Translations under genes and position numbers: made by a program | Notes under the pieces: generated by a model | Told to the model about the DNA's origin: nothing | The model's database searches: none | The model's input: the letters and a program-made list of their open reading frames with translations, nothing else | DNA from: an uncultured Solirubrobacterales bacterium | GTDB taxonomy: Bacteria > Actinomycetota > Thermoleophilia > Solirubrobacterales > JBBDJG01 | Reading direction: 5' to 3' | Length of the DNA: 64,000 nt | Assembly: GCA_963731895.1 (NCBI GenBank) | Contig: CAVSXO010000021.1 | Coordinates: forward strand, 4,796-68,795 | Shown: piece after piece, positions 11,784 through 64,000 of the stretch | How positions within the stretch are numbered: the stretch's first letter is position 1 | Layout: each line of letters opens with the position of its first letter

Positions 11784-11802
11784 CCGCGGACCATATCCGC
11801 CC

Positions 11803-13829: not shown

Positions 13830-13851
13830 AGCTACCGGCCGGCGCTGACGG

Positions 13852-16734: not shown

Positions 16735-16744
16735 CGGGCCACAC

Positions 16745-17032
16745 TTACGCTCGCCGGAAGTGCTCCAGCAGACCCCGCGCGTAGTAGTCCTCGAACTTCT
16801 CGCTCGGGCTCTCCATGACGTACTTCTTGTCGAGCCGCACGAGCATGTAGACGAGCTCGCTGCGGACCGGCTCCACGTCGAGCAGGTCGGGCAGCTCGGA
16901 GTGGTTCACGAGCCAGTCCGCGTACCAGGAGGCCCAGTCAGGGTCGTCGCCGTCGGTGATCCGGTACACGATGTGGTGCGTCTCCGCCGCCTCGTGCAGC
17001 AGGGCGCTGATCTTCTTGGCCCGTCTGTCCAT
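16745..17032 (-). CDS. Hypothetical protein
   Basis: GGAGG SD; plausible codon usage; HH..DPDWASWYADWL motif. Confidence 0.75.
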   Translation of the reverse strand: MDRRAKKISALLHEAAETHHIVYRITDGDDPDWASWYADWLVNHSELPDLLDVEPVRSELVYMLVRLDKKYVMESPSEKFEDYYARGLLEHFRRA

Positions 17033-17209
17033 TCGATTCCTCCTCCGGTCGGTCGCTCGGGCCTAACGTCTACCCGAGGGGTGGATCGCCGTGATCGGAG
17101 TATGCAAGCGTCGTTGCATTTCACGCTCCTGCACGGCAACTTGCAGATCCTTACGCGCATGCGACGCGGTCGAGACCCTCCGGGCGATCGTGAGGGAACA
17201 TTCGATCGG

Positions 17210-17911: not shown

Positions 17912-17923
17912 GCTGCGACGGCG

Positions 17924-18812
17924 ATGGCCGTGGCCTCTCCTGAGATCGCCGGCATCAGACACAGCGACGTCGACGCCGCCGGCCTGCGCATGCACGTCGT
18001 CGAGGCCGGCCCACCCGACGGCGACCCGATCCTCGTGCTCCACGGCTGGCCGCAGCACTGGTACCAGTGGCGGCACCAGATACCCGCGCTGGCCGGTGCC
18101 GGTTACCGGGTGATCGTCCCGGACCTGCGCGGCTTCGGCCGGACCGAGGCCCCCCCGAAGGGCTACGACAAGGAGAACATGGCCACGGACGTCCTGAACC
18201 TGATGGACGCCATGGGCCTCGAGCGCGTGAAGCTGCTCGCGCACGACTGGGGCGGATGGATCGCGTTCATCCTCTGCGTGCGCGCACCGGAGCGGTTCAG
18301 CCGCTACCTCGCGCTCAACATTCCGCACCTGTGGGCGAAGACCGACCCGCGCACGCTGCTCAACATTTGGCGCTTCTGGTACATGGTCGTGATCGCCACG
18401 CCGCTCGGGCGGTGGCTGCTGCGCAACCGCCCCGGATTCGTGCGCCGTGTGATCCAGGGCTCGTCACCGAACCCGCAGTCCTGGTCGGACGCGGACGTCG
18501 ACGCCTTCACACGGCCCCTGCAGGAGCCGGCACGCGCCGAGGCCAGCGTCCAGCTGTACCGCACGTTCCTGCTGAAGGAGTTCGGCCCCGTCGCCGCCGG
18601 CCGGTACCAGAAGACCCGGCTCACCGTCCCGACACTCGAGCTGTTCGGCGAGAACGACTTCGCGATCCCGAAGTCGTTCTTCCGCCGCGACCCGAACGAG
18701 TTCGCGGACGACTTCACGATCGAGTTCGTCCCGGACACCGGGCACTTCATCTGCCGAGGAGCGCCCGGAGCTGGTGAACGACCGCGCGCTCGAGTTCTTC
18801 GCACGAGACTGA
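17924..18812 (+). CDS. Epoxide hydrolase-like alpha/beta hydrolase (frameshift near 18752)
   Basis: LHGWPQ, PDLRGFG, HDWGG and GHF; EEAPELVN..ALEFF continues in another frame to TGA 18812. Confidence 0.85.
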
Positions 18813-18815
18813 CGA

Positions 18816-19547
18816 ACGATCCAGCTAGTCCGCACCGCCTTTCCCGACCGGCCGGCCTACGACACGGCCGTGTCGCACGCGATCCTCGAGCGGGTCGCCG
18901 CCGGTGAGTTGCCGGAGACCTTCCGGCTCGCGCGGCCCGGCGCGATGGTCGCGTTCGGCAAGCAGGACGTGAACAGCCCCGGCTACACCGATGCGGTCAC
19001 GGCTGCCTACGCCGGCGGCTTCGAAGCGGTGCAGCGCCTCGCGGGCGGGCGCGCCGCCGTCTTCCACGAGAACACGATCGCGTTCGCCTGGGCGGGCGCC
19101 TCGCGGGACACGTGGTCCGGCACGCACGAGCGCTTCCGCACGATCGCCGGCATCGTGGAGCGCGCGCTGCGGCGCCTCGGCGTGGACGCCCGCACCGGCG
19201 AGATCCCGCGCGAGTACTGCCCCGGCGAGTACAGCATCAACGCCCGCGGCCAGACCAAGCTGGTAGGGATCGGCCAGCGCCTGATCAGGGGCGCATGGCA
19301 CATCGGCGGGGTGATCGTGGTCGACGAGGCCGATCGCGTGCGCGACATCCTGATCCCGGTGTACGGGGCGCTGGGCCTCGACTGGGATCCCGCCACCGCC
19401 GGCGCCGTCGCCGACGAGGTCCCGAGCGTCAGCTGGGATGACGTGGCCGACGCGCTGCTTGCCGAGCTCCCCGACCACCAGGCCGGCGGCCTCGACCCCG
19501 CGACGCTGGCGCTCGCTCAGCGATTGGAGCCCGAGCACCTAGCTTGA
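18816..19547 (+). CDS. Lipoate-protein ligase A / octanoyltransferase family protein
   Basis: RLAGGRAAV, EYCPGEYSIN and KLVGIGQR; start uncertain (frame open from about 18813). Confidence 0.8.
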   Translation, partial: TIQLVRTAFPDRPAYDTAVSHAILERVAAGELPETFRLARPGAMVAFGKQDVNSPGYTDAVTAAYAGGFEAVQRLAGGRAAVFHENTIAFAWAGASRDTWSGTHERFRTIAGIVERALRRLGVDARTGEIPREYCPGEYSINARGQTKLVGIGQRLIRGAWHIGGVIVVDEADRVRDILIPVYGALGLDWDPATAGAVADEVPSVSWDDVADALLAELPDHQAGGLDPATLALAQRLEPEHLA

Positions 19548-50480: not shown

Positions 50481-51092
50481 TTGTTCAACAAGCTCCGCTC
50501 ACACCTGACCTTCGCCAACGTCGTTGCGATGACCGCGCTGTTCGTCGCGCTCAGCGGAACCTCGTACGCGGTCTCGAAGATTGGGCCCAAGGACATCCGC
50601 AAGAACGCCGTTCGCGCCAAGCACATCAAGAAGAGCCAGGTCCGCAGCAAGCAGATCAAGAACCGGTCCGTGCGCGCGTCGGACCTCGCGCCCGGAGTGA
50701 TCGGCACGACGCTTCAGTCCAGCGCCGGCCAGGCCAGGCGTGACGCCGGACCGACCGGTGTTGCCTCCTCGCAGAACTACACCACGGTTGCCACGCTGGG
50801 CGGGTTGGAGGCGGGCGCGTACGTGCTCCTGGCCAAGGCGAACCAGAGCTCGAATACGAAGACCGAGGGGCGCTGCCGGCTGTCGGCCGGGGACCAATAC
50901 GACGATTCGAACCGGGGCCTGCGCGAGGAGGGCACGCCCGAGGCACACAGCCTTCAGCTCGTGCACGCCTTCACGGGACCCGGCGCCGCGGTATTGGCCT
51001 GCCGCTCGGCGGCCGGAGTGTGGTCGGCGTCCGACACGAAAATCATCGCGATCAAGGTCGCGACCGCCAGCTCGAACGTGGTCGGCGGCTAG
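50481..51092 (+). CDS. Secreted hypothetical protein
   Basis: GGAGG SD; signal-like LTFANVVAMTALFVALSGTSYA followed by IxKNAV repeats. Confidence 0.75.
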   Translation: MFNKLRSHLTFANVVAMTALFVALSGTSYAVSKIGPKDIRKNAVRAKHIKKSQVRSKQIKNRSVRASDLAPGVIGTTLQSSAGQARRDAGPTGVASSQNYTTVATLGGLEAGAYVLLAKANQSSNTKTEGRCRLSAGDQYDDSNRGLREEGTPEAHSLQLVHAFTGPGAAVLACRSAAGVWSASDTKIIAIKVATASSNVVGG

Positions 51093-51979
51093 TCGGCGGC
51101 CCAGACCTGCAGGTTTGCCCGCTCGGCCGAAAGCGACTGGCCGCCACTCTCGAAACACACGAGGCTCACGTTGTAGGTCCCCGTAGGCTTGCTGGCGCCG
51201 CCTGAGATCGTGACCGTCTCGTCGAAGTCGGCCACGCCGGGCAGATCGGTCGCGTAAGTCAGGCTGATGTCGGACACCGCCTGCGGATCCTGCGTGTTGA
51301 GGATCTGCAGCTTGCAGCGGGCCTCGCGCGGGTCGGCGGTCGGGTTGCGCAGCTGCACCGTGGCGGTCGCCATCAGGCGCCCGGCGAAGGGGACGGCAAG
51401 CGGGTTGGACGACAGATCGATGACGGTGGCGGCCGATGAGACGTCCACCGCGGCACCGGACGAGACGCTGCGTGACGCGGTCGGACCCGCAGGACCCGTC
51501 GCCCCGTCGGCGCCGGTCGCCCCGTCGGCCCCGGTCGCGCCGGTAGCACCGGTGGCGCCGGTAGCGCCGGCGGCCCCGCCGGACCCGGTCGGCACCTGCC
51601 GGGCCCGCGGGACCCGCCGGCCAGGGCCCACCGCGCCCACCGGGCCGGTGGCTCCCTTCGATCCCCGCGCGCCGTCGCTGCCGTCGAAGCCCTCGCTGCC
51701 GCGGGCGCCGGGTGGCCCCTCCGGCCCGCGCGGCCCCGGGGTGCCGGCCTTCTTCAGCGCGAGTTTCGAGCGAATGTCGGCCCGCTTCGCGATTGCGAGC
51801 GCGCGCTTTGCCTTCGCCAGAGCTCCGGCCGCCGCACGGTCCACGGTCGGTCCGCCCATCGCGGGGCTGACCGTGCCGGCAAGCGACGCGATCAATGCAA
51901 TGCCAAGTAGGACTGTGAGAGGCCGAATCCGTCGGCCGGTGGCGATCCGTGCCAAGTCTTCCTCCGGGAGTGGGAGCAC
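51089..51979 (-). CDS. Secreted collagen-like (Gly-X-Y) protein
   Basis: TM/signal segment followed by GPRGPEGPPG..GATGATG; short out-of-frame patch near 51590-51620. Confidence 0.8.
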   Translation of the reverse strand: MLPLPEEDLARIATGRRIRPLTVLLGIALIASLAGTVSPAMGGPTVDRAAAGALAKAKRALAIAKRADIRSKLALKKAGTPGPRGPEGPPGARGSEGFDGSDGARGSKGATGPVGAVGPGRRVPRARQVPTGSGGAAGATGATGATGATGADGATGADGATGPAGPTASRSVSSGAAVDVSSAATVIDLSSNPLAVPFAGRLMATATVQLRNPTADPREARCKLQILNTQDPQAVSDISLTYATDLPGVADFDETVTISGGASKPTGTYNVSLVCFESGGQSLSAERANLQVWAAD

Positions 51980-52065: not shown

Positions 52066-52139
52066 GCCGACGTAGCTCAGCTGGCCAGAGCACTTCACTC
52101 GTAATGAAGGGGTCCCCGGTTCGAATCCGGGCGTCGGCT
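52066..52139 (+). tRNA. tRNA-Thr(CGT)
   Basis: Acceptor stem GCCGACG/CGTCGGC, D arm TAGCTCAG..GAGC, anticodon stem CTTCA-CTCGTAA-TGAAG, T loop GGTTCGAATCC; CCA not encoded. Confidence 0.96.
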
Positions 52140-52193
52140 TCCCTGTCATGGTCCACGTGCGATACCGTCGCCGCATTGGCCCTTCTCAGTCAG

Positions 52194-52455
52194 ATGATCC
52201 GCCACGTGGCCGATCACGGGACGCACAGACGACCTCAACGCGTGGTTTGCCACGCGTCAAGGCGGGCGCTGGGCCGAGCAGACCGTTCGTGCGGCCTTCC
52301 CGGCACCGCCCCGAGTCCAGAGGACCTCGCCCACAGCCTCGACCAAGCCGCCAGCCGACCCCGCCGAGACGCTGCAGCAGTTGACGGAGCTGCACAGGCG
52401 TGGTGTTGTCACAGACGCCGAGTTCGAGACTTTGCGCGCCGGCCTGAGAGCGTGA
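52194..52455 (+). pseudogene. Small SHOCT-domain protein, frameshifted
   Basis: One frame reads DPAETLQQLTELHRRGVVTDAEFETLRAGLRA*. Confidence 0.55.
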
Positions 52456-52523
52456 GCCCAATCCGCTCTGGGCCGAGGAAGCAAAGGGGGGAACAACCGC
52501 AAGTAGGCGCTAGCGCCCGAGCG

Positions 52524-52595
52524 TCCTCGTCCTTCCCGCCGACCGCCAACTACGCGTTCATCTCGAACTGCCACACGGGCGCGCTTGTTGCCCCC
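52524..52595 (+). pseudogene. Isolated N-terminal fragment of a glycoside hydrolase family 15 gene
   Basis: SFPPTANYAFISNCHTGALVAP matches the GH15 N-terminal motif; nothing follows. Confidence 0.6.
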
Positions 52596-52688
52596 GCGCG
52601 CAAGCCAGCTTCCAGGCCGCAGACGACGCTGGGAGCGGGGTCCCTCGTCGTGTAGCGTCGGCTCAGTCGACACGAACTGGAGGTATGG

Positions 52689-53080
52689 ATGGAGGCTTCA
52701 CGAAGACGCGTACCGGGAGAGGGGTGGATCACATTTGCAGCCGTCCTCGTCCTGGTCGTCGGTACGTTCAATGTCATCAATGGCATTGCGCTCATCGTCG
52801 ACGACAACTACTTCCGTGCCGACGAGCTCCTGTTCGGCGACCTGTCGATGTGGGGTTGGCTGGCTCTCATCATGGAGCGGGCCAGATCCTGATTGGCTTC
52901 GGCATCTTCAGCGGCAGCATTTTGGCTCAAATCGTCGCCGTCGTCTGGGCCGCCCTGAACGGGTGCCTCCATCTCTTCGCGATCGGTGCGTACCCGGCCT
53001 GGTCGATCATCATCATGGCAATCGACGGACTCGTGATCTATGGGCTGATCATGTACGGACGGGCGTTCAACGAGGCATAG
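52689..53080 (+). CDS. Small four-TM membrane protein (DUF7144-like), frameshifted
   Basis: GWITFAAV..GTFNVINGIA..WGW, then AYPAWSIIIMAIDGLVIYGL in a shifted frame. Confidence 0.7.
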
Positions 53081-53093
53081 TCGGCGCGGCGAC

Positions 53094-53594
53094 TCAGCCC
53101 GGTAGGTTCCCAAGCTGGTCGAGCAGGCCGCCGGTGCCGCCGAACAGCTTGCTGCCGTCCTCGATCAGCGCCACCGCCTCGTCGACCGGGAGGCGCGCCG
53201 CGATTGCCCGTAGTCCCGTGGCGACCAGCGGGTTGAGCGCCCCGGCGGCTTCCGCGTCGTCGATCCCGCGCTTGACCCCCGCGCGGACAGCCGCCTCCAA
53301 CTCGGCGTCCTCGATCCCGTATCTGGCGGCGAACTCGGCGCGGCTCTCGGGGGTCGCGAGCGCGACCGCAAGCGTCTCACGGCTGACGCCGAGCTCGCAG
53401 GCGGCGCCGTCGAGGGCCGAGAGCGCGAACTGCTGCGCAGACTCCTCGACCCCCTGAGGATCGCGCCATTCGCGAGGATCGCAGGGATCGGCGACCTGTG
53501 TGGGCTCATAGGAGCCGCCGCCGAGCACCAGGTAGAGGGCGACGAGCGCTGTCGCTGCGGCGACGGCGGCACCGACGAGCGCGCGGCCGCTCAC
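53094..53594 (-). CDS. Membrane-anchored hypothetical protein
   Basis: TM segment then GGGSYEP..ADPCDPR..LDGAACELGVSRE; GTGA-coupled to the MFS gene. Confidence 0.7.
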   Translation of the reverse strand: MSGRALVGAAVAAATALVALYLVLGGGSYEPTQVADPCDPREWRDPQGVEESAQQFALSALDGAACELGVSRETLAVALATPESRAEFAARYGIEDAELEAAVRAGVKRGIDDAEAAGALNPLVATGLRAIAARLPVDEAVALIEDGSKLFGGTGGLLDQLGNLPG

Positions 53595-54956
53595 AGCTGC
53601 ACCCGCCGGCGGGCGATCGCGATCGGGATCAGCGCCGCGACGGCGAACGCCGCGGCGATCAGGAAAGAGGCGCTGAACGCGTGCGTCGCGGCGGCGTCGA
53701 CCTCCTCCTCGATCTGACCTCGCAGGGCCACCGTCTCGACCCGCTTCGCTGGATCGGACGGCAACGGCTCGAACGCCGGGGCGATGGTCGGGACCTTGTC
53801 GCCCTCGGCCTCGATCTGCTTGGCGATCCGGTCGGCGAGCTCCAGCTTGGCGCCGGGGGAGAGGCGCGCGTCGAGCAGCGCCGCGGTACCGGCCGCCTCG
53901 GCGTCGGCGCGCTCGGTGTCGAGGTCGGCGGTGAACACCGGCGTCAGCAGCAGCAGGCCCACGACTACGCCGGCATGGCGCGAAGCGATCGTCCAGCCGC
54001 CGTGGATCGCCTGCGGCGCGCGGCCTGCCAGGGCCGCCTCGGTGAGCGCCGAGAGGGTCAGCGCGAGGCCGAAGCCGACCAGCGCCTGGGGCGGGAACGT
54101 GAGCACCACCGACGCGTCCGGGAGCAGTCCGAGCGCCGCGAGGCCGCCCGCGATCAGGATCGCGCCCGCCGCTGCCCGCGCCTCGACCGCGGGGACTCGC
54201 CGGGCGAGCGGGGCGGACAGCAACGCGCATGCCGGGAGCACGCTGACCGCCGCCGCGGCCTCGATCGGGCTCAGCCGCCAGCCTTCGATAAGCATCAGGA
54301 CGACGAGAAACAGAGCCGCCGCGAGGGCCGCCGAGATCAGGCCGAGCGCGGCGTTGGCCGCCAGATGCGGGCGCCCCGCGGCACCCGCGCCCGCGCCGGG
54401 TCGCTTCGCCCCGCGCCGCTCCGATGATTGGGACCGCGAGCAGAATTGCCGCCGGGACTTGGACGAGGAAGATCGATTGCCACGACACGAGCTCAGTGAG
54501 CAGGCCGCCGACGGCGGGCCCGAGTGCGGCGCCGGTGGCGCCGGCGGTCGCCCATGCCCGCGTGGCAGAGCGCTCGGAGCCATACACCGCCGGCATCAGC
54601 TCGAGCGCGGCGCAGACCGCAGCCGCGCCGCCCACGGCCTGCAGGCAGCGAGCCGCGATCAGCACGCCGATCGACGGCGCGAGGCCGCATCCGAGGCTTG
54701 CCACCGCGAAGAGCCCCAGCCCCGCCGCCGTCAACCGCGCCGGCCCGATCCGCGACGCGGCGTGCGCGGCCGGTACCGCGCTCGCCGCGAGGACGAGGTT
54801 GAACCCGATCAGCACCCAGGTGACCGCCGCGACCGAGACGTCGAGCTCGCGGTAGATGTCGGGCAGCGCGAGGACGACCACCGAGGAGTCGGCGAGGACC
54901 AGACCTACCGCCGCGCCGAGCGCGATTCGCGCTGCCCTGGGATCACCGGCAAGCAT
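53591..54956 (-). CDS. MFS transporter (frameshifts near 54400)
   Basis: ADSSVVVLALP, ARCLQAVGG and GPAVGGLL. Confidence 0.8.
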
Positions 54957-55016
54957 CGAGCCCGAGTCTAGGTCCCGGTCGCGCGCCTGGTAATCGGGCA
55001 CGGCTTCCCGGTTCCG

Positions 55017-56748
55017 CTATTCGATGAGCTTGCCGGCCGAGGAGACCTCACGCATCAGGGCAGCGATTCGTCGGGGATCGGCGGGATCTCCTCGCGAGCT
55101 AGGCGACCCGGCCCCGACCAGACGAGGTTGACCTGCAGCGACGGCGTCGAGCTCTGGATAGTCGGAGCGGTTGTGGCAACCGCGGGTCTCTCGCCGCTCG
55201 AGAGCGGCCTCGAGAGTGGCTCGGGCGGCGAGGGTCGCGGACTTGAGGTCGAAGGCGTGCGCAAGGTCCTGAAAGCCTGCCGACGTCGGGGTGCACGCCC
55301 AGGTCGGCCATGCGCGCGTCGATGATGTCGAGTTCTGCGAGGCCGGCGAGGAGCCCCGCCTCGTCGCGCACGACGCCGGCGTGCTCGGTCATCGTGTTCC
55401 GGATAGCGCGCTGCAGGGCCCGAACGTTCTCCGGCCCGTCAGCGGCGAGCAGCTCGTCGACCTCGGCGCGTGCCCCGGCGAGCGCGGCCGCGGAGCGCGG
55501 CTGGGCCGTGAGCTGCGCCGAGTAGGCAGCGGCCGCTTTCCCGGCGATCCGCCCGGCGACGAGCAGTTCGATCAGGGAGTTCCCGCCGAGGCGGTTGGCG
55601 CCATGCAGCCCGCTCGACGCCTCGCCGATCGCGTAGAGCCCCTCGACGCCGGTGCTGTGGTCCTCGGGGTGCACCCAGACGCCTCCCATCGAGTAGTGCG
55701 CGGTCGGTGCGACCTCGATGGGGGTCGTGGTGATGTCGAGCATCTGCAGTTCGAGCAGGGTCTGGTAGACGCGCGGCAGGCGCTGCATGATCGTCTCGCG
55801 GGGCAGGTGCGAGACGTCGAGCCAAACGCCGCCGTTCGGGCGTGCCGCGCCCCTCCTTGATCTCGGTGTAGGTCGCCAGCGCGACGCGATCGCGCGTGGA
55901 CAACTCCATGCGCTCCGGGTCGTAGCGCGCCATGAACCGTTCGCCGAGGCCGTTGCGGAGGATGCCGCCCTCGCCGCGCGCCGCCTCGGACACGAGGGTG
56001 CCGGCCGCGTTTTCCGGCTCGATGAGGCCCGGAGGGGTGAAACTGCACGAGCTCGGGGTCGCGGATCCGGCCACCGGCCTCCACGGCGAGGCGGAACGAG
56101 TCGCCGGTGTTCTCGTCGCGGCGCGACGAGGTGTGGCGCCAGATCCGGGTGTGGCCGCCGGCCGCGAGGATGACCGCGTCCGCGTGGATGACGTAGCGGG
56201 TGCCGTCCTCAGGTCGAAGCCGTAGGCGCCGAAGACAACGTTGTCGCGCACGAGGAGCCTCGTGATGTAGATCGGTGTCGAGGATCGGGACCTGCAGCTG
56301 CGCGGCGCGGTTGACGAGCGTGCGCTGGATCTCGAGACCGGTGTAGTCACCGGCGAACGCCGTGCGGCGGAACGTGTGCGCGCCGAAGAAGCGCTGCGAG
56401 ATCCGCCCGTCCTGCTCGCGGGCGAACGGCATGCCGTAGCGCTCGAGGTCCTCGATGCCTCGAGCCGCGCCCTCGGTCACGATCTGCACCGTGCGCGGGT
56501 TGGCGAGGAGGTAGCTCTCCTTGAGGGTGTCGGCCGCGTGCTGCTGCCAGGTGTCCTCGGGGTCGACGGTCGCGAGCGCCGCGTTGATGCCGCCGGCGGC
56601 GAGCGACGTGTGGGCGTCCGCCTTGGGCCGCTTCCCGACGGCGAGCACGTCCACTCCCGCGCTCAGCAAGCTCGATCGCGGCGCGCAGGCCCGAACCTCC
56701 CGTTCCAATGACGAGCACGGACGTCGAGATGAGCCGTTCAGGGCTCAT
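55017..56748 (-). CDS. L-aspartate oxidase/succinate dehydrogenase flavoprotein-like FAD oxidoreductase, multiply frameshifted
   Basis: IGTGGSG, AHTSLAAGGINA, VQFHP, LVSEAARGEG, HYSMGG, HGANRLGGNSL and ETRGCH across frames. Confidence 0.8.
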
Positions 56749-56806
56749 AGCGCCATCAGTTCACGCGGCCTGGCGCTCGGCGACCGGCCACGTCATGAGG
56801 AGCTCC

Positions 56807-57570
56807 TCACGGTTGGGTTTGCCTTGCCGTGGACTGGCTGAGCCAGTCCTCGAAGCGGGTCGGGGCGATGCGCGGGTTGTCGCCGGGGGTGAGGGAGTGG
56901 TCGTCGAGCTCTGTACCGAAGTAGCGCGCGTGGACGTCGGCCGTCACTGGCGCGCGTCGTCTTTCGCGCTCAGGACGCGACGGGCCAGCTCGTCGAGACG
57001 GAACGGCTCGGGGCCGGCGAGCTCGACCGTGTCGTTCAGCGGCGGGCTCGTCGCGACGTCGGCGAGCGCCGCGGCCACGTCGTCGGCCGCCTCCGGCTGA
57101 ACCAGCACCGGCGCCAGGCGAACCGTGTCGCCGTCGGCGCTCGAGTCGGCGATCCGGCCGATGAACTCGAAGAACTGCGTTGCGCGCAGGATCGTGTAGG
57201 GGACCGGCGCGGCCTTCACCACTTCCTCCTGGGCGACCTTCGCGCGGAAGTAGCCGCTCGCCGGGAGCCGGTCGGTGCCGACAACCGAGAGAGCGACATG
57301 GTGTCCCACGCCCGCTTTCGTCTCCGCGTCGCGGAGGTTTCGCGACGAGGTCTGGAAGAAGTCGAGCACGGCCGCGTCCTCCCAGGCGGGCGCGTTCGAG
57401 ACGTCGACGACGACGTCAGCGCCGGCGAGCGCTTCGTCCAGGCCCTCGCCGGTGAGCGTGTTGACGCCGGTGTCGGGCGATGCGGCGAGCGGCTCATGGC
57501 CTGCGTCGCGGAGCTTCTCGACGAGCTTCGAGCCGATCAGTCCGGTTCCGCCGATCACGACGATCTTCAT
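56807..57570 (-). CDS. NmrA-like atypical SDR (frameshift near 56945)
   Basis: IGGTGLIG, YFRAK and RATQFFEF; ARYFG..TRFEDWL in a shifted frame. Confidence 0.85.
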
Positions 57571-58447
57571 GACTTTCCTTTCGTTTGCTCAGTAGGGGTT
57601 GCGGGAACGAAGCGCTTGACGAACGCGAGCGCCTTTTCGGCCACCTCGCGCCAGCCGCTGTCGATCGTGAGCGCGTGGCCGCGGTTCGGGATCTTCACGA
57701 TCTCGGTCACGCCAGGGTTGCGCCTCTGCCGCTTGTAGGCGGCGTGCGCGATCGCCCACGGCACCGTGTGGTCCTTCTCTCCTTCGATGAAAAGCAGCGG
57801 CCCGCGATTCGGGTTCTTGGGGTCCAGCTTTGCCTCGGTCCGCGGGTTCAAATTGGCATTGGCCATCTGCATCAGAGCCACGCCCGGGCGCCGCGACGTG
57901 GTAGGTCTCATAGAGCCGCTCCGCCTCCTCGTCGTCGAGGGCGTTCGCCCAGCCGTACTTGAACTGGTCCAGGGTGAGAGTGATGGCACGGCCCCGGTTC
58001 AAAGGGTTTCGAAGTACCGGGATCGAGACCCGCAACGTTGAGATCGGCAGCGGCAGCACACCGCGAAACGGTCCGGGATCGATCGCCACCGTTGCCGCGG
58101 ACAAACCCCGGTCGGCGATGATCTGCGCCAGCAATCCGCCGGTCGAGTGGCCCATGACCGCGGGCTTCCTGTCCAGCCCCCCGATCACCTCTGCGGTGTG
58201 ATCGGCGACCTGCTTCGAGCGTCTTCTTGGCGAGGATCTCCGGCTCCGCGCGGGCCACTTCAACCGTCTCGGGATCGTCTGGCCAGTCCGGGGTCACCGC
58301 GGCATAGCCCGCGGCCTCGAACAGGTCGGCCCAGCGATCCCAGCTACTCGGCAGCAGCCAGAGCCCGTGGATGAATACGACCGGCGTCCGCCCGCTCGCG
58401 TTCGCCTGCTCGACCTGTCGCGTTTCCCGCTCAGTGACTCCGGCCAA
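57567..58447 (-). CDS. Alpha/beta hydrolase (frameshifted)
   Basis: FIHGLWLLPSSW, GHSTGG, GEKDHTVP and RGHALTID. Confidence 0.85.
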
Positions 58448-58654
58448 GTGATTCTCCTTCCCGCGCTGACTCGGCGAAAGCGCCGTGGACGATGATGTGG
58501 TCGTGGGTGGCATGAGTGCTCCTTTCGGTGGGCTGAGTAAGCGATACGGACGTGCAGCGAGTATCCCACTGTGGCCTGCGCGTCTCGGGGTTCATCGCGG
58601 GTTCGCAAAGGCATTACAGAGCCGCTGACGTTCCTGGCGGTATGGGCTGGCCTC

Positions 58655-59122
58655 CTATGCGCTGTGGAGCGCCTCGCGCAGGACGGCGCTAGCCAGGCGG
58701 CGGACCGCTGAGTCCGTGAGCTGAAAAACGGTTGTCGGTAGTCCGAAGCGCTCGATGACCTGATCGAGCAGCCTGTTCTCCGCCAGCCCGCGCGGTCGCC
58801 GGGACGCAGGCCGATCAGGAGATGGTCGGGAGCGAACTGCCGGACAGCGTCATCGAACGCCAGCAGAGGATCGTCGGCGCCCACTGCTCCAGCGGCTCCG
58901 GCGCCCATTTCGTCCAGTTGCCCGAGCACCGTCTGCAGACGCTCGTCTGCTTGCTCGCGAGCCTTGTCCGTGGCAGAAGTGAGCCAGTCCAAGGCGCCCC
59001 GGCAGGGCCGGCGCGATGACCAGAATCTCATCGGCCACATCGATCAGGGACCGAACGCTCGCGGGTATGTCGCCAGGTTCGGAGGCGGCTGCGCCCACTG
59101 CGATCAGGAGTCTCAATCCCAT
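58655..59122 (-). CDS. Universal stress protein-like hypothetical protein (frameshifted; end approximate)
   Basis: LVIAPAL..A.ERL..VGADDPLLAFDDAVRQFAPDHLLI..RFGLPTTVF. Confidence 0.55.
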
Positions 59123-59256
59123 CCCGTCTAGAGACTAATCCAAGATCCGAAAGCAGCCGCAAACGAGTCACCCCCGTCACATCCCCGGATTCCGCTTCAA
59201 CAAGCCGAAACGACGATCAGCCGCAAATAGCTCGTAAACGCCTGAGGGTGCCTGGT

Positions 59257-59297
59257 TAATGGAAGGGGTCCCCGGTTCGAATCCGGGCGTCGGCTTC
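59257..59297 (+). repeat. Copy 1 of the tRNA-Thr 3' half (att-like)
   Basis: 59262-59297 is identical to 52106-52141 (36 nt), preceded by TAATG. Confidence 0.92.
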
Positions 59298-59438
59298 GCT
59301 TATAAAGCGGAATAGATAGCCTCGTCCAGTGCGACTGAGGCCGATGGGCAATGGATTGGGCAACGGGCGCTCCTCGGGGGACCATCCGCCGGCTTAGGCA
59401 GGATCTCCCCGGCCCTACACGATCGGAGGTAACCGGAA

Positions 59439-59843
59439 ATGGTGCTGGCTGCGGACTACCCGTTCCTCGACATTCTCTGGACCATGCTCATCTTCTTCGC
59501 GTGGGTGATCTGGTTCTGGATTCTCATCCGGGTGCTCATGGACGTGTTTCGCCGACACGACCTGTCGGGGTGGGGTAAGGCTGGTTGGACGGCCATGATG
59601 ATCTTCGTGCCATTCCTAGGAGTGTTCATCTATCTCGTCGCGCATGGTCAGGACATGGGAAAGCGAGACATCGACCAGGCCCGGGCCGCACAGGCAGACT
59701 TCGACGAGTACGTCCGATCCGTGTCCGGGAGCGGCCAGGGCGGTGCGGCGACATCGCAGATCGCCGATGCGAAGCAGTTGCTTGACAGCGGGGCGATCTC
59801 GCCCGATGAGTACGAGCGGCTGAAGGCAAAAGCGCTTTCGTAA
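59439..59843 (+). CDS. PLDc_N + SHOCT domain membrane protein
   Basis: GGAGGT SD; DVFRRHDLSGWGKAGW..PFLGVFIYL and AKQLLDSGAISPDEYERLKAKAL. Confidence 0.9.
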   Translation: MVLAADYPFLDILWTMLIFFAWVIWFWILIRVLMDVFRRHDLSGWGKAGWTAMMIFVPFLGVFIYLVAHGQDMGKRDIDQARAAQADFDEYVRSVSGSGQGGAATSQIADAKQLLDSGAISPDEYERLKAKALS

Positions 59844-59998
59844 GCGGAATGGTCCGCGGGGTCGCCGCCCGCTGGGAGTGGCGTACCTTCGGAGGCCAGT
59901 TCGGTGAAGCCGAGGCCAGGTTCGCCGCTCTTTCGCCGGAGCGTATTCAGGAGAGCGATGAGCTGTAGCCGCTCGCATTCTGCGGGTGTTGCACGGGA

Positions 59999-60041
59999 AC
60001 TCGTAATGAAGGTGCCCGGTTCGAATCCGGGCGTCGGCTTC
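59999..60041 (+). repeat. Copy 2 of the tRNA-Thr 3' half (att-like, slightly degenerate)
   Basis: ACTCGTAATGAAGG..CCCGGTTCGAATCCGGGCGTCGGCTTC starts at the anticodon loop. Confidence 0.92.
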
Positions 60042-60146
60042 AGCTCTCGAACTGGACTTGCGCGGTGGAGTGATCCCAGGCAACTGCTCGAGCGCACGGG
60101 CTGACTGGAGGCCGCATCGCCTAGAATCGCTGGGCGGAGGTCGCCT

Positions 60147-60680
60147 TTGGAATCGAGCATGCTCCAGCGGGTGGATGAGGCCTTCCCCTGGTTGCCAGGT
60201 GAAATCCGCGAGGGCTGCGCCGTCGTCTGGCGCGTCTTGGAGGCGCTCTCCGCCAAGGACGTCGAAAGCGGTTTGTCGTTTTTCCAGCACGACTGCGAGT
60301 ACCGCTCGGCATTCGCGCCAGCTGAGGGCGGTGCCGCCTACACGGGACGTGACGGGCTCAGGAAGTACTTCAACACCGTCTTCGAGCTGTTCGACGTCTG
60401 GAGCGTCATGCCGACGAACTTCATTGGCAGCGACGACCGAATCATGGTGCTCGGAACGTTCGAGTTCTCGGGCCATGGTAGCCACGTCACGATGAAGCAG
60501 CCGATCGGCACGATCTGGATGCTTCGAGACGGCCTGATAACGCGCGGCTTCGGGTTTCTCAACGTGAACGACGCCGTCGACTCGATGGCGGCCCAATGCG
60601 GTCGTGACCGTACCGAGATCGAGTCGCTGATCGACAAGGCGGAGCGGGCACGCGCATCTCACGAGAGCCGGGACGTGTAA
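60147..60680 (+). CDS. SnoaL/NTF2-like protein
   Basis: EGGAAYTGRDGLRKYF..GHGS..IWMLRDGLI; GGAGG SD. Confidence 0.75.
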   Translation: MESSMLQRVDEAFPWLPGEIREGCAVVWRVLEALSAKDVESGLSFFQHDCEYRSAFAPAEGGAAYTGRDGLRKYFNTVFELFDVWSVMPTNFIGSDDRIMVLGTFEFSGHGSHVTMKQPIGTIWMLRDGLITRGFGFLNVNDAVDSMAAQCGRDRTEIESLIDKAERARASHESRDV

Positions 60681-60850
60681 AGCGGGATCGCTTGGCGGCT
60701 TGGCGAAGCGGCCTTCCCGGACCTGCCGTGATGGGCAACCGGCTGGTAGCGGCCCCGGCGCGCTCTTTATAAGGAGCCGATTCGCCGGGGTCCCCGACGG
60801 CGCCGCGCAAAAGCGCCGCATCGTTCTACCTGCGGGATACTGCGCGGGCG

Positions 60851-61084
60851 ATGTCGCAGGAGAACGTGAAGCTCATCGAGCAAGCACTGCGGCTCTACGC
60901 GGCCTACAACCGCCGCGACTGGGACGGCTACTTTGCCGAGGCGGGTCCCGGGTTCGAGTTCGATCCAACCGAACAAGGCGGCGTATTTCGAGGCCGCAGG
61001 GCGCTGACCGAGCTGGCCGAGAACTGGTTCAGCACGTGGCAAGAGTGGCTACCAACATGCGCGAGGCTGTTGGCGGCCGTCTGA
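60851..61084 (+). pseudogene. Truncated MSQENV-type SnoaL/NTF2-like gene
   Basis: MSQENVKLIEQ..YNRRDWD..FRGR..WF; the C-terminal half is absent. Confidence 0.65.
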
Positions 61085-61161
61085 CCTCCTCAGATCGGCG
61101 GCTACTGCCAAGTGCGCCGCTTTGGACGCGAAGGAGCTGATGAACCCCATGGGAGGAACCG

Positions 61162-61295
61162 ATGGACCAACTCGTTCAAGTCGCAGGCGCACTCCTGATC
61201 CTGTCGCCGTTCGCGGCGCTTCAGTTCGGCCGGATGCGGGCCGACTCGCGCGTGTACTTGATCCTCAACCTGACAGGATCGGCCGTGCTGACGGT
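61162..61295 (+). pseudogene. Truncated CBU_0592-like membrane protein
   Basis: GGAGG SD; MDQLVQVAGALLIL..YLILNLTGSAVL, then runs into the HD gene tail. Confidence 0.6.
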
Positions 61296-61828
61296 GCGTC
61301 GCGGACGCCCGCGGCGAGCGCCGCGATCATTCCTGACTTGAAGTTCGTCCGCGGATGGGCGGCCAGGACCGCGTCACGCTGCTCGGCCGTGAGCGCGTCG
61401 AAGGACGAGCCGTAGAGGTCGTACTGCACGCCGAGGGCCACGAGCCGCACCTCGGACTGCTTGTAGTTCGGAACCTGCCTCGTCGTGTGCAGCGCGATCG
61501 ATTCCCAGACGGTCATGACCTGCTCCTCGGGCAGGCCGTGCCGCTCGAGGAAGGCGCGGGCGGCGTTGGCCCCGTCGATCTCGAAGCGCTCGTGCTCGGA
61601 GCGGTGGCCCTCGAGCAGGCCGACGTCGTGGAACATCGCGCCGACGTAGAGCAGCTCGGCGTCGTAGCTCAAGGCTGAGCTGTTCGGCCCGCAGCGAGGC
61701 CCAGAGGAACACTCGCCGTGAATGGTCGAACAGCAGCTTGGTGGAGGCGTCCCGTACGAACTCGGTCGCCTCGCGGGCGAGCGCGCTGTCGGGGATCGCT
61801 ATCCCCGCGATCGTCGGTCCCGGTCATG
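61265..61828 (-). pseudogene. HD-domain protein, frameshifted and C-terminally truncated
   Basis: IPDSALARE..LFDHSRRVFLW, MFHDVGL, RFEIDGANAA and IALHTT. Confidence 0.75.
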
Positions 61829-62731
61829 GCGACTCATTTTCGGGATGCGGCACACGACGGCAACACAACCTTGCCCCGTCGGCCCGGCTCCAGGCTGCGC
61901 GCGAACGCCTCGCGCGCCGACGTGAGCGGGAAAACCTCGACGGGCGGCGGGCCGCAGCTCGCCGACATCCGCCAGCCTCGCGAGCGACCTGAGCTGGTCG
62001 CGATTCGGCTCGACGATGAAGTACACGCCTCCATCAGGCGGCTCCTCCGCCACCGAGACCAGTCGCCCGCCGGCGCGCAGCACCGCGAGGGACCGGCGCA
62101 ACCGCTCGCCGCCGGCGGTGTCGAACACGACGTCGACGGGTTCCACCGCGTCCTCGAAGCGCGTCGCCGCGTCGACGGCCTCGTGTGCGCCGAGCTCGCG
62201 GACCAATCCCAGGTTCGCCGCCGATGCGGTCCCGATCACGTGCGCGCCGCCCGCGCGGGCGAGCTGCACGGCGAACCCGCCGACGCCGCCCGCGGCACCG
62301 TGGATCAGCACGCGCTCGTCTGCGCCGAGCCGGCCGTGGTCGAACAGCCCCTGCCAGGCGGTGAGCGCGGGCAGAGGGATCGCGGCGCTCTCGGCGTGCC
62401 CGAGCGCCCGCGGCCTGGCCACCAGCAGCTCGGCGGGCAGCGCCGTGTAGTCGGCTGCGACGCCGTCGCGGTCGAACGGCGTGAGCGCGAACACCTCGTC
62501 GCCGGCCGCGACGCCGGCGACGCCGGGTCCGACTTCCTCGACCACTCCGGAGAGTTCGTAGGACGGGATCGCCGGCAGGCGGTCGACCGGCCATTCCAGC
62601 TCGCCGCGGGTGATCGCCGCCGCGTGCACGCGGACGAGCGCCTCCTCCGGACCGGGTCGTGGCCGGTCGGCCTCCTCGACCGCGAGCTGCTCGGGACCGC
62701 CCGGCGCACGCAGCCGGACGACGCGCATCAC
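61799..62731 (-). CDS. NADP-dependent quinone oxidoreductase (MDR family), frameshift near 61940
   Basis: LTAWQGLF and LIHGAAGGVG; GKVVL tail in a shifted frame. Confidence 0.85.
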   Translation of the reverse strand: MMRVVRLRAPGGPEQLAVEEADRPRPGPEEALVRVHAAAITRGELEWPVDRLPAIPSYELSGVVEEVGPGVAGVAAGDEVFALTPFDRDGVAADYTALPAELLVARPRALGHAESAAIPLPALTAWQGLFDHGRLGADERVLIHGAAGGVGGFAVQLARAGGAHVIGTASAANLGLVRELGAHEAVDAATRFEDAVEPVDVVFDTAGGERLRRSLAVLRAGGRLVSVAEEPPDGGVYFIVEPNRDQLRSLARLADVGELRPAARRGFPAHVGARGVRAQPGAGPTGQGCVAVVCRIPKMSRHDRDRRSRG

Positions 62732-63081
62732 GCCGCCGTCAGTCCGTCGTAGACGGTCGGGGACTCGCCCTCGCCGAGCACGAAGAACGCGATCAGGCTC
62801 GCCGGCAGCTCCTGGCTGGCGTTGCGCGACACGGAGTGCAGCGCGCCCGGCGGCTCGTAGAACGACTCGCCGGCCTTCAGCATGACCGGTTCGCGGTCGT
62901 CGAGCCCGAACATCACGCTGCCGTCGATCACGTACACGTACGCGCCGGCCGGGTGCCGGTGAGTGCCGCGCGTGAATCCGCCCGGCTCGTAGTCGATGCG
63001 GAGGGCTTGAACGACGAGCCCGTCGCGTGACGGGAAGTCGAGCACGGAAGTCACGCGCTCGCCGGTGTCGGAGTGGGGCAT
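62728..63081 (-). CDS. Cupin domain protein
   Basis: HRHP..YVIDG..GESFYEPPGALHSVSRNAS; GGAGG SD. Confidence 0.88.
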   Translation of the reverse strand: MPHSDTGERVTSVLDFPSRDGLVVQALRIDYEPGGFTRGTHRHPAGAYVYVIDGSVMFGLDDREPVMLKAGESFYEPPGALHSVSRNASQELPASLIAFFVLGEGESPTVYDGLTAA

Positions 63082-63408
63082 GGGGGACCTCCTGGAGGTC
63101 GATAGAGTCGATACGACCCTGACGGTACGTCCGCAGGCTGCCGACGGCGATACGGTCTGCCGAACACGTGATCGCGAACCGCGGCGCGTGAACGAATCGC
63201 GTATCGCCTTCCGACTGAACGCTGCTTGTTGAGGCTCGTCCGGCGGCGAAAGCGCCACGTCGACCATGTCGAGCCGTTCCAGGCTTTCACTGCTCGGGGC
63301 GTGAAATTGGGTTTCGACGGGCCTGTGGGCAACCTTTTGGGCAACCCGCGAGCCGCAGGGCTGGATGCGCTCGGATACTGAGCGGGTTCAACACTCTCGG
63401 ATACTCGC

Positions 63409-63843
63409 TCAGGAGTCGGCGTGAGCGTCTTGCTCCGAGAGGCCTGCGGTTTCGAGCGCCTCTTCGAGCGAGTAGAAGCTGTTGAACTCAACGACGAGGC
63501 CGTCTTTGAGCTCCATGACGTTTGTGAGGAAGGGCAACTCGACCTCCGCACCGCTTTGCTTGCCCTTCGCCTCGAATCTCACGACCGTCACGACTTTGTC
63601 ACCACCGACGAAGGTGCGCTGGACGTGACTCTTGAAGTAATCCCAGGGCTCGTGCACCGCGTCCCACCATTCACGGACTCCCGCATGTCCGTAGTAGGCG
63701 GTCCTGACCCCGATAAACAGATCCTCGGCCCCATCCCCGCGCCACTTGGCATCGGGATGAACGAGCGAAAGAAAAGCGTCGAGATCCTCTCGATTCCAGG
63801 CGTCGTAACCACGCCGCACGATCTCCACGTTCTCCTGCGACAT
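63409..63843 (-). CDS. MSQENVE-type SnoaL/NTF2-like protein
   Basis: MSQENVEIVRRGYDAWN...EALETAGLSEQDAHADS*. Confidence 0.88.
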   Translation of the reverse strand: MSQENVEIVRRGYDAWNREDLDAFLSLVHPDAKWRGDGAEDLFIGVRTAYYGHAGVREWWDAVHEPWDYFKSHVQRTFVGGDKVVTVVRFEAKGKQSGAEVELPFLTNVMELKDGLVVEFNSFYSLEEALETAGLSEQDAHADS

Positions 63844-63865
63844 CGGTACGCAGTATCCCGCTTGC

Positions 63866-64000
63866 TCAGGAGTCGGCGTGAGCGTCTTGCTCCGACAGCC
63901 CGACGGCTTCGAAAGCCTCGGCACGGTCCGAGTACTCCTCGCAGCGAGCGGCCCTTTCCCCACGGATGAGCCATACCTGCCAACCCTCCATCCTCACTTC
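63866..64000 (-). CDS. C-terminal part of another SnoaL/NTF2-like paralog (5' end outside window)
   Basis: EVRMEGWQVWLIRGERAARCEEYSDRAEAFEAVGLSEQDAHADS*. Confidence 0.8.
   Translation of the reverse strand, partial: EVRMEGWQVWLIRGERAARCEEYSDRAEAFEAVGLSEQDAHADS

Follow-up and report, generated by a model that had tools for sequence, protein, structure and literature searches.

The region downstream of the tRNA-Thr(CGT) gene in the DNA analysed here (64,000 nucleotides from an uncultured Solirubrobacterales bacterium, hereinafter the window) is probably an integration hotspot in which elements were inserted serially at an attB site in the anticodon loop and then lost their recombination genes. 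Hotspots of this kind are already known, from the tandem accretion that leads to CIMEs and from the ssrA islands of Dehalococcoides, and are unusually common in this lineage.

Layout of the array

ARAGORN identifies a single tRNA gene in the window, the intact tRNA-Thr(CGT) at 52066–52139 on the plus strand. The gene is identical to tRNA-Thr(CGT) of three relatives, scores 68.7 bits against Rfam tRNA, and can be read as the regenerated attL target. Copies of its 3' part follow downstream, all on the same strand. Copy 1 (59257–59297), a putative attR of unit 1 and attL of unit 2, begins on the 3' side of the anticodon loop; positions 59262–59297 are identical to 52106–52141 over 36 nt, that is, the final 34 nt of the tRNA and the 2-nt trailer TC, and the match extends back to TAATG at 59257 if one extra G is allowed. 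Copy 2 (59999–60041), slightly decayed, opens with the anticodon-loop sequence ACTCGTAATGAAGG, differs in the variable loop by one substitution and the loss of 2 nt, and continues with 27 identical nt including TC. The fourth and degenerate member of the series lies 4 kb past the window end, at the equivalent of 68060–68087 (L001 6856–6883); its T arm is retained, and 3 nt are missing from the acceptor strand. The 22-mer GGTTCGAATCCGGGCGTCGGCT occurs three times in the window, compared to 0.01 expected from 100 shuffles, and the final 30 nt of the tRNA, with up to five substitutions, are found in these three places only in all 46 contigs of the metagenome-assembled genome (MAG; 3.4 Mb). The order is thus tRNA, unit 1 (7.1 kb), copy 1, unit 2 (0.7 kb, with 744 nt between the tRNA ends), copy 2, unit 3 (about 8 kb) and the degenerate copy. 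The farther a copy lies from the tRNA, the more decayed it is, which would be the outcome if each new insertion entered the intact gene. An earlier note made from the letters of this DNA had described the tRNA, the two copies that begin in or beside the anticodon loop and the sizes of the first two units, and all of this is borne out.

Genes of the units

Unit 1 contains at least six genes, most of which are broken. It starts with a stretch (52140–52688) that lacks a credible intact ORF or a Pfam match and consists of gene fragments similar to DNA located 3–7.5 kb from the tRNA in the relatives G017 and G012; a tblastx search aligns 52204–52458 with L009 8011–8235 and L015 13008–13145. The DUF7144 membrane protein gene (52689–53080, plus strand) matches profile positions 1–52 and 52–115 in two frames, and alignment with three intact relatives places the break at a 1-nt deletion in a run of G; its nucleotide identity to the copies in G012, G002 and G011 is 86–92%. 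An MFS transporter gene (53094–55001, minus strand) is split over at least two frames, with the long frame covering only positions 4–168 of the 347-position MFS_1 profile; its nucleotide identity to G011:C41 and G017:C13 is 92–93%, and soil contigs differ from it by 1 nt at 54390. The next gene (55099–56748, minus strand) encodes a FAD-binding oxidoreductase similar to SdhA and L-aspartate oxidase and is split over several frames (FAD_binding_2 profile positions 20–262 and 338–414 in different frames); soil contigs have indels at 55841 and 56210, and the identity to G001:C400, from an unpublished genome, is 92.6%. The gene for an NmrA-like NAD(P)-binding protein of 208 aa (56944–57570, minus strand; Pfam NAD_binding_10 and NmrA) is intact. 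The adjacent alpha/beta hydrolase gene (57567–58513, minus strand) is split over three frames, judging by the ORF layout and weak Abhydrolase_6 matches in two frames, with soil-contig indels at 57882/57886 and 58217/58220. Together, these two genes have 92.5% nucleotide identity to G012:C6, where the NmrA-like gene lies about 300 nt past a tRNA-Trp gene. The last gene of the unit (58294–59122, minus strand; ORFs 58850–59122 and 58294–59040), apparently split over two frames, belongs to an unknown family without Pfam or PADLOC matches; its start adjoins arm repeats (see below), and relatives with 73–80% identity are found elsewhere in G016 and G010.

The sole intact gene of unit 2 encodes a small membrane protein with PLDc_N and SHOCT domains (59439–59843, plus strand). 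After copy 2, Pfam searches reveal a cargo block (60147–63267) that consists of a SnoaL-like gene (60147–60680) and a truncated SnoaL-like gene (60851–61084), both on the plus strand, and, on the minus strand, genes for an HD domain protein (61265–61672), a Zn-ADH/quinone reductase (61799–62731) and a cupin (62728–63267). Further downstream is the first (63409–63843, minus strand; SnoaL_2) of three tandem SnoaL-like genes (the others at 63866–64276 and 64301–64816), which have a hyper-conserved junction repeat and are followed by an S15 peptidase gene (peptidase domains by Pfam) that is common to G010, G013 and G005, with 79–91% amino acid identity. The genes of the array lie on both strands, and its Pfam content is limited to metabolic and membrane genes.

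Taken as a whole, unit 1 is a mosaic: the closest copies of its modules are found at other loci in other genera. Long ORFs cover 0.34 of this unit, which places it in the bottom 8% of 903 windows; the median for the genome is 0.71. The units of the window are both mosaic and decayed, as manifest in the frame breaks of unit 1, a mismatch of arm types and the fading tRNA copies. Instead of decay, the frame breaks could reflect errors of assembly; soil contigs of close relatives differ by 1-nt indels in the inferred break regions or close to them.

Recombinase searches and comparison with related genomes

No tyrosine or serine recombinase, or a remnant thereof, is detectable on the contig. A search with PF00589 (E≤0.001) yields 7 matches elsewhere in the genome and none on contig C21, where the earlier note had suggested looking for an integrase beyond position 64000; there is likewise no neighboring element with a PF00589 integrase on the contig. 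A tblastn search with 11 integrase queries gives no convincing match on the contig (best E 0.05), and the serine recombinase profiles PF00239 and PF07508 find nothing on C21. The ORFs upstream of the tRNA have no recombinase matches and are ordinary genes, syntenic with 8 relatives at 71–78% nucleotide identity. Accordingly, the claim that the units lack recombinases holds. The observations that the note had named as contrary to its reading, a decayed integrase in each unit or an identical, fixed gene order in relatives without empty-site or circular forms, are not seen either: no window unit contains such a remnant, and the relatives differ in content.

Clustered arrays of 2–5 copies are present in 8 of the 17 Solirubrobacterales genomes of the same family, and among the partial copies aligned from relatives, 18 of 21 start at CTCGTAA or within a few nucleotides of it. 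In the genome that contains the window, 9 of the 50 tRNA genes have a total of 11 downstream partial copies; the units at these genes range from 0.3 to 8.9 kb, several include a single gene, and none encodes an integrase. In the complete units of the family relatives, PF00589 is matched in 1 of 15, by a partial remnant with a stop, and no serine recombinase is found (PF00239, PF07508). In G010, a C-terminal integrase remnant (27.2 bits, one stop) adjoins a copy, and G019 harbors, at the same site as in the window, a 32-kb island that encodes a complete integrase (72.9 bits).

The array is a variable interval bracketed by conserved flanks. In addition to the syntenic upstream genes, the gene at 68086–69016 in window numbering is found at most about 280 nt past the last copy in G017 and 9 kb from the tRNA in G012. 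The genera that share cargo modules at about 92% identity have flanks that are 71–78% identical, which indicates that this DNA has moved recently.

Arm repeats

Short paired direct repeats flank the tRNA copies. Two copies of CAGCCGCAAA (59154–59163 and 59218–59227, plus strand) precede copy 1 and can be read as P-arm-type repeats; similar pairs precede partial copies in G014 (L010_u1), in G006 (L018) and in metagenome contig L044. After copy 1, at the start of unit 2, TGGGCAATGGATTGGGCAA (59345–59363, plus strand) contains TGGGCAA twice and resembles P'-arm-type paired repeats. At 13 of the 14 places inspected, the TGGGCAA motif lies 50–95 nt past a tRNA 3' end or partial copy. In the intact island of G019, GGATTTCCC occurs twice on each arm, with the P' pair 57–78 nt past the tRNA, the P pair roughly 90–110 nt ahead of the copy, and the integrase start codon about 20 nt from the P-arm pair. 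Given these matching positions in an integrase-bearing island, the repeats of the window resemble attL/attR arms. Within one unit, the repeats of the left arm usually differ in type from those of the right arm, and this is the case in unit 1. An additional arm repeat without a core, TGGGCAACCTTTTGGGCAA (63326–63344, plus strand), can be read as the relic of a further junction that kept the P' arm and lost the tRNA core; one more junction is probable at about 63.3 kb.

Comparison with known systems

Among the closest parallels are the tandem islands of the Islander class, which are formed by tyrosine integrases with an anticodon-centered attP (PMC4383910). As described there, an intact tDNA is followed by displaced 3' fragments in the same orientation, several islands can be lined up, the anticodon loop is the crossover region, and old fragments are known to carry small deletions close to their 3' ends. 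The present array has the same composition: three copies in the window, counting the tRNA itself, and a fourth one beyond it, with copy 2 starting at the anticodon loop and copy 1 on the 3' side of it. However, Islander accepts an island only if it contains an integrase and measures 2 kb or more. The units described here contain no integrase, and although units 1 and 3 exceed the length threshold, unit 2 does not; by design, such units do not pass the filter. In the Islander set, rows of three or more islands are rare (4 among 3919 islands; PMC4383910).

The units also resemble CIMEs produced by site-specific accretion, exemplified by ICESt1/ICESt3 of Streptococcus thermophilus (PMC5704250), in which integration and transfer genes are lost, the attL/attR flanks stay, and arrays grow by integration alongside; integration, decay to a CIME and further accretion have been described as a series of events. 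Here too, recombinase searches and Pfam content reveal no integration or transfer genes, and the blocks are flanked by tRNA-part repeats and arm-like pairs in a layout analogous to that of the intact island. In that source, CIMEs are defined beside a related functional ICE or IME, with experimentally proven cis-mobilization, whereas the units described here lack a functional partner and are at best putatively mobile; moreover, they are targeted to a tRNA gene, in Solirubrobacterales, and can be as small as a single gene.

The ssrA islands of Dehalococcoides (PMC3146451) similarly occupy a hotspot that recurs across the lineage: many islands stand in tandem, the 3' end of a small RNA gene is directly repeated at their boundaries, and extra conserved nucleotides adjoin the repeats; 15 of these islands lack the integration module and 16 have it, and the authors proposed that those lacking it are CIMEs. 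They differ in that a single site, the T loop of tmRNA, is used, with the serine recombinase DsiB encoded in a six-gene module at attL, as opposed to the anticodon loop of many tRNAs, with tyrosine recombinases in relatives.

The earlier note had likened the array to an integron. The two are alike in that small units with genes form a chain, that a repeated sequence resembling a recombination site separates them, and that new units presumably join at the proximal end, but they differ in other respects. No intI lies by the site, and the upstream ORFs are ordinary genes; the units are separated by tRNA 3' parts and arm repeats rather than attC hairpins; and, instead of single co-oriented cassettes, the units can be multigene, with genes on both strands and no common promoter logic; unit 1 is a mosaic whose closest copies lie at other loci, and the two arms of a unit are usually dissimilar.

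Origin and fate of the units

The scenario most compatible with these observations is that elements encoding tyrosine integrases of the anticodon-loop attachment class entered the tRNA 3' part one after another, each insertion restoring the tRNA and displacing the older 3' part outward. The integrase genes would then have been deleted, or might never have been retained, and the leftover blocks would have been reshaped by deletion and exchange of cargo modules. The blocks in the window are likely to be mostly inert remnants now or, at best, cis-mobilizable elements. A difficulty for the decay component is that integrase remnants are few for simple decay, with none in the 16 kb of the array and 1 in 15 units of the 8 family relatives.

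This scarcity bears on a different possibility, namely, that the units are still mobile non-autonomous elements, CIME-like "mini-islands" that retain attL/attR arms without an integrase and are moved by integrases of related autonomous elements, in trans or in cis, so that the tRNA sites form a lineage-wide system of gene accretion. We regard this as unlikely, although several findings point in this direction. Integrase-less units are the rule, both in this genome and in the relatives, and cargo was recently transferred between genera. Six unit ends in 5 genomes have a common arm block of about 110 nt (83–91% identity in three) that stops at about the same point beside unrelated cargo, which fits propagation of integrase-less ends better than independent deletions. 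A coherent 2.6-kb unit in G011 has the matching arm motif at both ends and no integrase. In an array at tRNA-Met in G171, one unit encodes an integrase, and two junctions have near-identical arms around different cargo. The TGGGCAA pair is exactly preserved in differing surroundings at Thr, Met and Phe tRNAs, and the motif is present in 23 of the 401 genomes of the order, compared to 4 for the reversed control. On the other side, the cognate integrase was not found: the family-A arm occurs only at these arrays (three MAGs among 185,579 species, and no metagenome contig), and an integrase lies within 3 kb of TGGGCAA in just 2 of the 14 genomes scanned. In the window units themselves, arms are mismatched or absent, the cores have decayed and genes are broken. 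The excised circles or empty sites proposed as a check in the earlier note are not seen either, with no att-to-att joints in four sequencing runs that contain only short contigs of relatives and hence have little power. The lineage-wide accretion anticipated in that note stands with respect to the recurrent hotspot but not with respect to capture of non-autonomous cassettes in trans. An extended and more speculative version is that the family runs a genome-wide tRNA cassette system, in which integrase-less units of one to a few genes keep both arms and are shuttled between tRNA sites and genera by a few anticodon-loop tyrosine integrases acting in trans, with the tandem SnoaL-like genes and their invariant junction providing a second, linked exchange layer in the same zones; we consider this improbable.

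Even less probable is an exchange of blocks mainly by homologous recombination, where the junctions (arm, tRNA part, arm and about 300 nt) and the SnoaL junction repeats of about 100 nt would serve as portable homology, with no site-specific recombinase involved today. It would account for junctions that are far better conserved than the DNA between them, for the patchwork of unit 1, which is joined at intergenic points lacking tRNA copies, and for the location of 24 of the 31 SnoaL junction repeats at most 4.8 kb downstream of a tRNA gene or partial copy. However, homologous exchange does not produce 3' parts of a tRNA that are displaced and begin at the anticodon loop, so that an integrase step is still needed for their origin. 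Finally, a chimeric or error-rich assembly of a strain-variable region hardly explains the array or the broken genes: although the MAG is fragmented (46 contigs, 70% complete), the frame breaks cluster in unit 1 where soil contigs differ by 1 nt, and contigs of relatives often end within such arrays (G011, G014 and G016), misassembly does not typically yield repeats of about 40 nt at kilobase distances, long intact ORFs are present in the remainder of the window (cover 0.78), and the architecture recurs in array-bearing family genomes that include one- to nine-contig assemblies as well as in the independent metagenome contig L044.

Implications

On the preferred reading, serial integration at tRNA-Thr(CGT), the array reveals where flexible genes are stored and renewed in an uncultured soil lineage, with tRNA 3' ends as landing pads and cargo that is shared at about 92% identity by genera with about 75% identity in their core genes. 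Because such units are skipped by tools that insist on an integrase and a length of at least 2 kb for each island, this part of the accessory genome is probably under-counted. If small units are indeed mobilized in trans, they would be a tRNA-based counterpart of CIME-type non-autonomous elements, with the arm motifs and target tRNAs already mapped.

Displaced copies of the tRNA-Thr(CGT) 3' part

The single tRNA gene of the window, tRNA-Thr(CGT) (ARAGORN prediction, 52066-52139, plus strand), is followed on the same strand by displaced copies of its 3' part, which are read here as att cores. Copy 1 (59262-59297, plus strand, or from 59257 with one extra G) comprises 36 nt, namely the last 34 nt of the tRNA and the trailer TC. 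Copy 2 (59999-60041, plus strand) starts from the anticodon loop and shows a 2-nt deletion and one substitution in the variable loop, followed by 27 matching nt that include the TC. A local alignment scan of the whole contig (C21, of which the window is C21:4796-68795) identifies a fourth, same-strand copy at window-equivalent positions 68060-68087, with an intact T arm and an acceptor strand lacking three bases, and therefore the array extends beyond the window. The earlier note had described the tRNA gene and two partial 3' copies in the same orientation; ARAGORN and reading of the sequence confirm this description, and the fourth copy extends it. The window contains the 22-mer core three times, compared to 0.01 expected occurrences, and the last 30 nt of the tRNA gene have no further occurrence among the 46 contigs of the genome (a MAG of 3.4 Mb, 70% complete). 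The copies become more decayed with increasing distance from the tRNA gene. Directly upstream of that gene lies a minus-strand ORF for a collagen-like Gly-X-Y repeat protein (51089-51979); relatives carry a similar but diverged gene at this place.

Arrays in relatives and at other tRNA genes

The upstream flank genes of tRNA-Thr(CGT) are syntenic in eight relatives, with 71-78% nucleotide identity. On the other side, G017 has the gene at window coordinates 68086-69016 no more than about 280 nt from its last copy, in G012 this gene lies 9 kb from the tRNA, and a block around the S15 peptidase is common to G010, G013 and G005 (79-91% amino acid identity), with a degenerate copy after it in G013. 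From the positions of these conserved flanks, it follows that the interval between them varies from 1.4 kb to 16 kb; this interval is interrupted by tRNA-part copies. The 22-mer (at most one mismatch) is present in 27 of 60 relatives. At least two clustered same-strand copies on one contig were detected in 8 of the 17 genomes of the same family (five copies in G002, four in G011, three each in G009, G010 and G006, and two each in G013, G014 and G017) and in 3 of 43 genomes from other families (G019, G023 and G024). Complete units number 15 in the eight family relatives and span 990-7784 nt, and their cargo is diverse and unrelated from unit to unit. The first unit of the G009 array contains, on the minus strand, a group II intron catalytic domain (Rfam RF00029, 51.6 bits; extracted locus L003, 6209-6283).

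The pattern is not confined to tRNA-Thr(CGT). A comparable chain of units stands at tRNA-Met in another genome, G171. Nine of the 50 predicted tRNA genes of the MAG have downstream partial copies on the same strand and the same contig (last 22 nt of the tRNA, at most two mismatches): Thr-CGT, Gly-CCC, Phe-GAA, Arg-CCT, Arg-ACG (two copies), Gln-TTG, Val-CAC, Val-GAC and Val-TAC, the eight others being sited on contigs C10, C15, C26 (two sites), C27, C35, C41 and C43. The identity begins at the anticodon stem-loop in 6 of the 11 partial copies. The units behind these nine tRNAs are 0.3-8.9 kb long, contain no PF00589 (tyrosine integrase) match, and in several cases encode a single gene, e.g., for a RibD_C, FG-GAP or beta-helix protein. 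ARAGORN also predicts two tRNA-like genes with four-base anticodons (ttgg and gccc) and no assigned amino acid, at G000:C8:29138-29210 and C37:2818-2892 of the same MAG.

Search for recombinases

A PF00589 profile read through stop codons has no match on C21 and seven in the whole genome, and a tblastn search with eleven integrases, from this genome and from the arrays of relatives, yields a best E-value of 0.05 over 46-85 kb; on these results, a decayed integrase inside the window was rejected. Resolvase and Recombinase domains are likewise absent from C21, and the arrays of 10 genomes contain no serine recombinase, the nearest being 17 kb upstream of the G011 array. Among the 15 complete units of the family, one, in G010, has a PF00589 match (E<=0.01), which is a C-terminal remnant scoring 27 bits and interrupted by a stop. 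Outside the family, an island of 32 kb in G019 encodes a full integrase, no PF00589 integrase is present in the three units of G024, and the search for an integrase in the G023 unit gave only a sub-threshold Arm-DNA-bind_4 match (E 5e-4), the remainder being without a Pfam match. Among public read runs, the best contained at most 0.20 of the sampled words, and four gave only short soil contigs of relatives; in these four runs, no joint links the tRNA and copy positions, and the listed joints are unreliable, with sides of 21-39 nt.

Elsewhere in the genome, a match to an Xer-like tyrosine recombinase is broken in two, with the parts in different frames (G000:C30:48762-49282), as it is in two other MAGs (G002:C8:194189-194657 and G011:C28:189792-190302). 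The break falls at a similar profile position (86-101) in all three and might reflect a frameshift common to them, a pseudogene or an error of assembly.

Paired repeats flanking the copies

The tRNA-part copies are flanked by several sets of paired direct repeats, before (P-arm type) or after (P'-arm type) the copy. Family A is a block of about 110 nt just upstream of the tRNA part that is found at six unit ends in five genomes, opens with GGGTCC-N5-GGGTCC and is 83-91% identical among three of the six ends. In G011, a family A pair also follows a copy, which results in a 2.6-kb unit with the pair on both ends and no integrase. Family B (GGGCCGT twice) precedes three copies in G011 and follows the tRNA in G009. 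In the window, CAGCCGCAAA occurs twice before copy 1, and likewise in G014, G006 and the metagenome contig L044. Another motif, TGGGCAATGGATTGGGCAA, lies 48 nt after copy 1 and again, without a core, at 63326-63344. It is present in 23 of 401 genomes of the order, compared to 4 for the reversed control, and in 13 of 14 inspected places lies 50-95 nt past the 3' end of a tRNA or partial copy (Thr-CGT, Thr-TGT, Thr-GGT, Met and Phe), often with a hairpin before it.

The intact G019 island suggests what these repeats may be. It contains GGATTTCCC twice per arm, and the integrase starts about 20 nt from the P-arm pair. Because the pairs of this island hold positions corresponding to those of the other pairs, we infer that all the paired repeats described here are putative arm-type integrase sites. 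The two ends of a single unit mostly have different arm types, which points to remnants fused by deletion. Of 14 genomes scanned, only two have an integrase within 3 kb of a TGGGCAA pair, namely G171 and, as a remnant, G335. A master element for the family A arm was rejected as the 114-nt arm matched arrays alone in the 401 genomes of the order; a search with the family A pattern returned only 3 MAGs in genome_contigs and none in metagenome_contigs. An Rfam search of the conserved arm blocks and SnoaL leader (L002-L004 and window 59000-64000) gave only tRNAs, the group II intron piece and one chance-level match. In G006, the 3' part of tRNA-Thr(GGT) recurs in two partial copies behind the gene (locus L018, G006:C1:3630000-3649999, at 11213-19162), one of them with a CAGCCGCAAA-type arm before and a TGGGCAA pair after it; the same locus contains a stray Thr-CGT partial copy (13805-13851).

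Cargo of the units

Unit 1 (7.1 kb, from the tRNA to copy 1) encodes a DUF7144 protein, an MFS transporter, an FAD-binding oxidoreductase, an NmrA-like protein, an alpha/beta hydrolase and an unknown gene, and unit 2 (0.7 kb, between copies 1 and 2) a single small PLDc_N/SHOCT membrane protein. Copy 2 is followed by SnoaL-like genes, an HD protein, a Zn-dehydrogenase, a cupin, three tandem SnoaL-like genes and an S15 peptidase. No name above cut-off was obtained from NCBIfam or PADLOC for the SnoaL-like, SHOCT and unknown proteins. The S15 peptidase ORF as called (1344 aa) is overlong in its 5' portion (window 63878-64900, L001 2674 onward), where roughly the first 340 codons are antisense to the three tandem SnoaL-like genes, and homology to the peptidases of relatives begins near 64900.

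In unit 1, the NmrA-like gene alone is unsplit; every other gene is spread over frames, with Pfam domains running on across the frame changes. The DUF7144 gene lacks one nucleotide that three intact relatives have, and soil contigs of close relatives have 1-nt indels at 54390, 55841, 56210, 57882/57886 and 58217/58220, near frame changes inferred from the ORF layout. Long high-GC3 ORFs cover a fraction of 0.34 of unit 1, against a genome median of 0.71 and 0.78 for window positions 1-52000, which places the unit within the lowest 8% of 903 windows. These breaks may represent real decay or a local assembly error.

Unit 1 is a patchwork of modules with differing closest copies. The closest copies of the DUF7144 and MFS genes show 92-93% identity and lie on G011:C41, which has two (93% and 90%), and on G017:C13, at 13 kb past the G017 array; the FAD gene is 92.6% identical to G001:C400, a claim that depends on this one unpublished genome; and the NmrA and hydrolase genes are 92.5% identical to G012:C6, about 300 nt after tRNA-Trp, where no partial tRNA-Trp copy bounding the module was found. 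DUF7144 also occurs alone (86-92% identity): in G012 it immediately follows the single tRNA-Thr, in G002 it follows the last copy, and in G011 it is part of unit 3. Because the identities of the modules exceed the 71-78% of the flanks, these comparisons indicate that the modules moved recently between genera.

The SnoaL junction repeat

The tandem SnoaL-like genes are arranged head to tail and linked by a junction that is about 100 nt long, nearly invariant, and consists of C-terminal codons ...GLSEQDAHADS with a stop, a 23-nt spacer, and ATG with codons for SQENVEI. It is found at 60829-60874 (plus sense) and 63790-63890, beyond the window at 64253-64298 and 64788-64838, and elsewhere in the MAG on C26, C30, C35, C39, C41, C43 and other contigs. 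The genome contains 31 copies, with ORFs of at least 130 aa at only 14; many bodies are truncated. Most of the junction copies (24 of 31, in 10 of 14 clusters) have a tRNA gene or partial tRNA copy at most 4.8 kb upstream, a zone that makes up at most 16% of the genome. Of 18 family genomes, 16 carry the 32-nt leader-start of the junction, with 1-37 copies per genome that are mostly free of mismatches and a tandem spacing of about 440-450 nt; in a phylum-wide sample, only 2 of 301 genomes carry it. In the soil runs, depth is 360-2450 in junction bins versus mostly a few to about 300 elsewhere. A folded RNA was considered and rejected (z-score -0.87, no signal), and neither Rfam, NCBIfam nor PADLOC has a fitting name for the junction.

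Origin of the arrays and known systems

The pattern of the window array has precedents. The Islander principle pairs a tDNA with its fragment and, by design, rejects candidates that lack an integrase or are shorter than 2 kb (PMC4383910); CIMEs and accretion describe the same pattern (PMC5704250); and 15 of the ssrA islands of Dehalococcoides have no integration module (PMC3146451). Among the papers listed by a literature search for such arrays in Solirubrobacterales, none mentions the order.

The earlier note had proposed a cassette array mobilized in trans, functionally akin to an integron and perhaps lineage-wide. An integrase-free, tRNA-anchored array that is lineage-wide (8 of 17 family genomes) is borne out; the integron-like capture in trans is not. 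The units in the window have the look of remnants, decayed and mosaic in composition. Mobilization of small arm-bearing units in trans within the lineage is kept as a possibility because integrase remnants are very rare and arm blocks are conserved beside unrelated cargo, and we consider it rather unlikely. The array signature is probably best explained by serial tyrosine-integrase integration followed by loss of recombination genes and remodeling: integrase-encoding elements would insert one after another at the anticodon-loop attB of the tRNA, their recombination genes would be lost, and the blocks left behind would then be remodeled.
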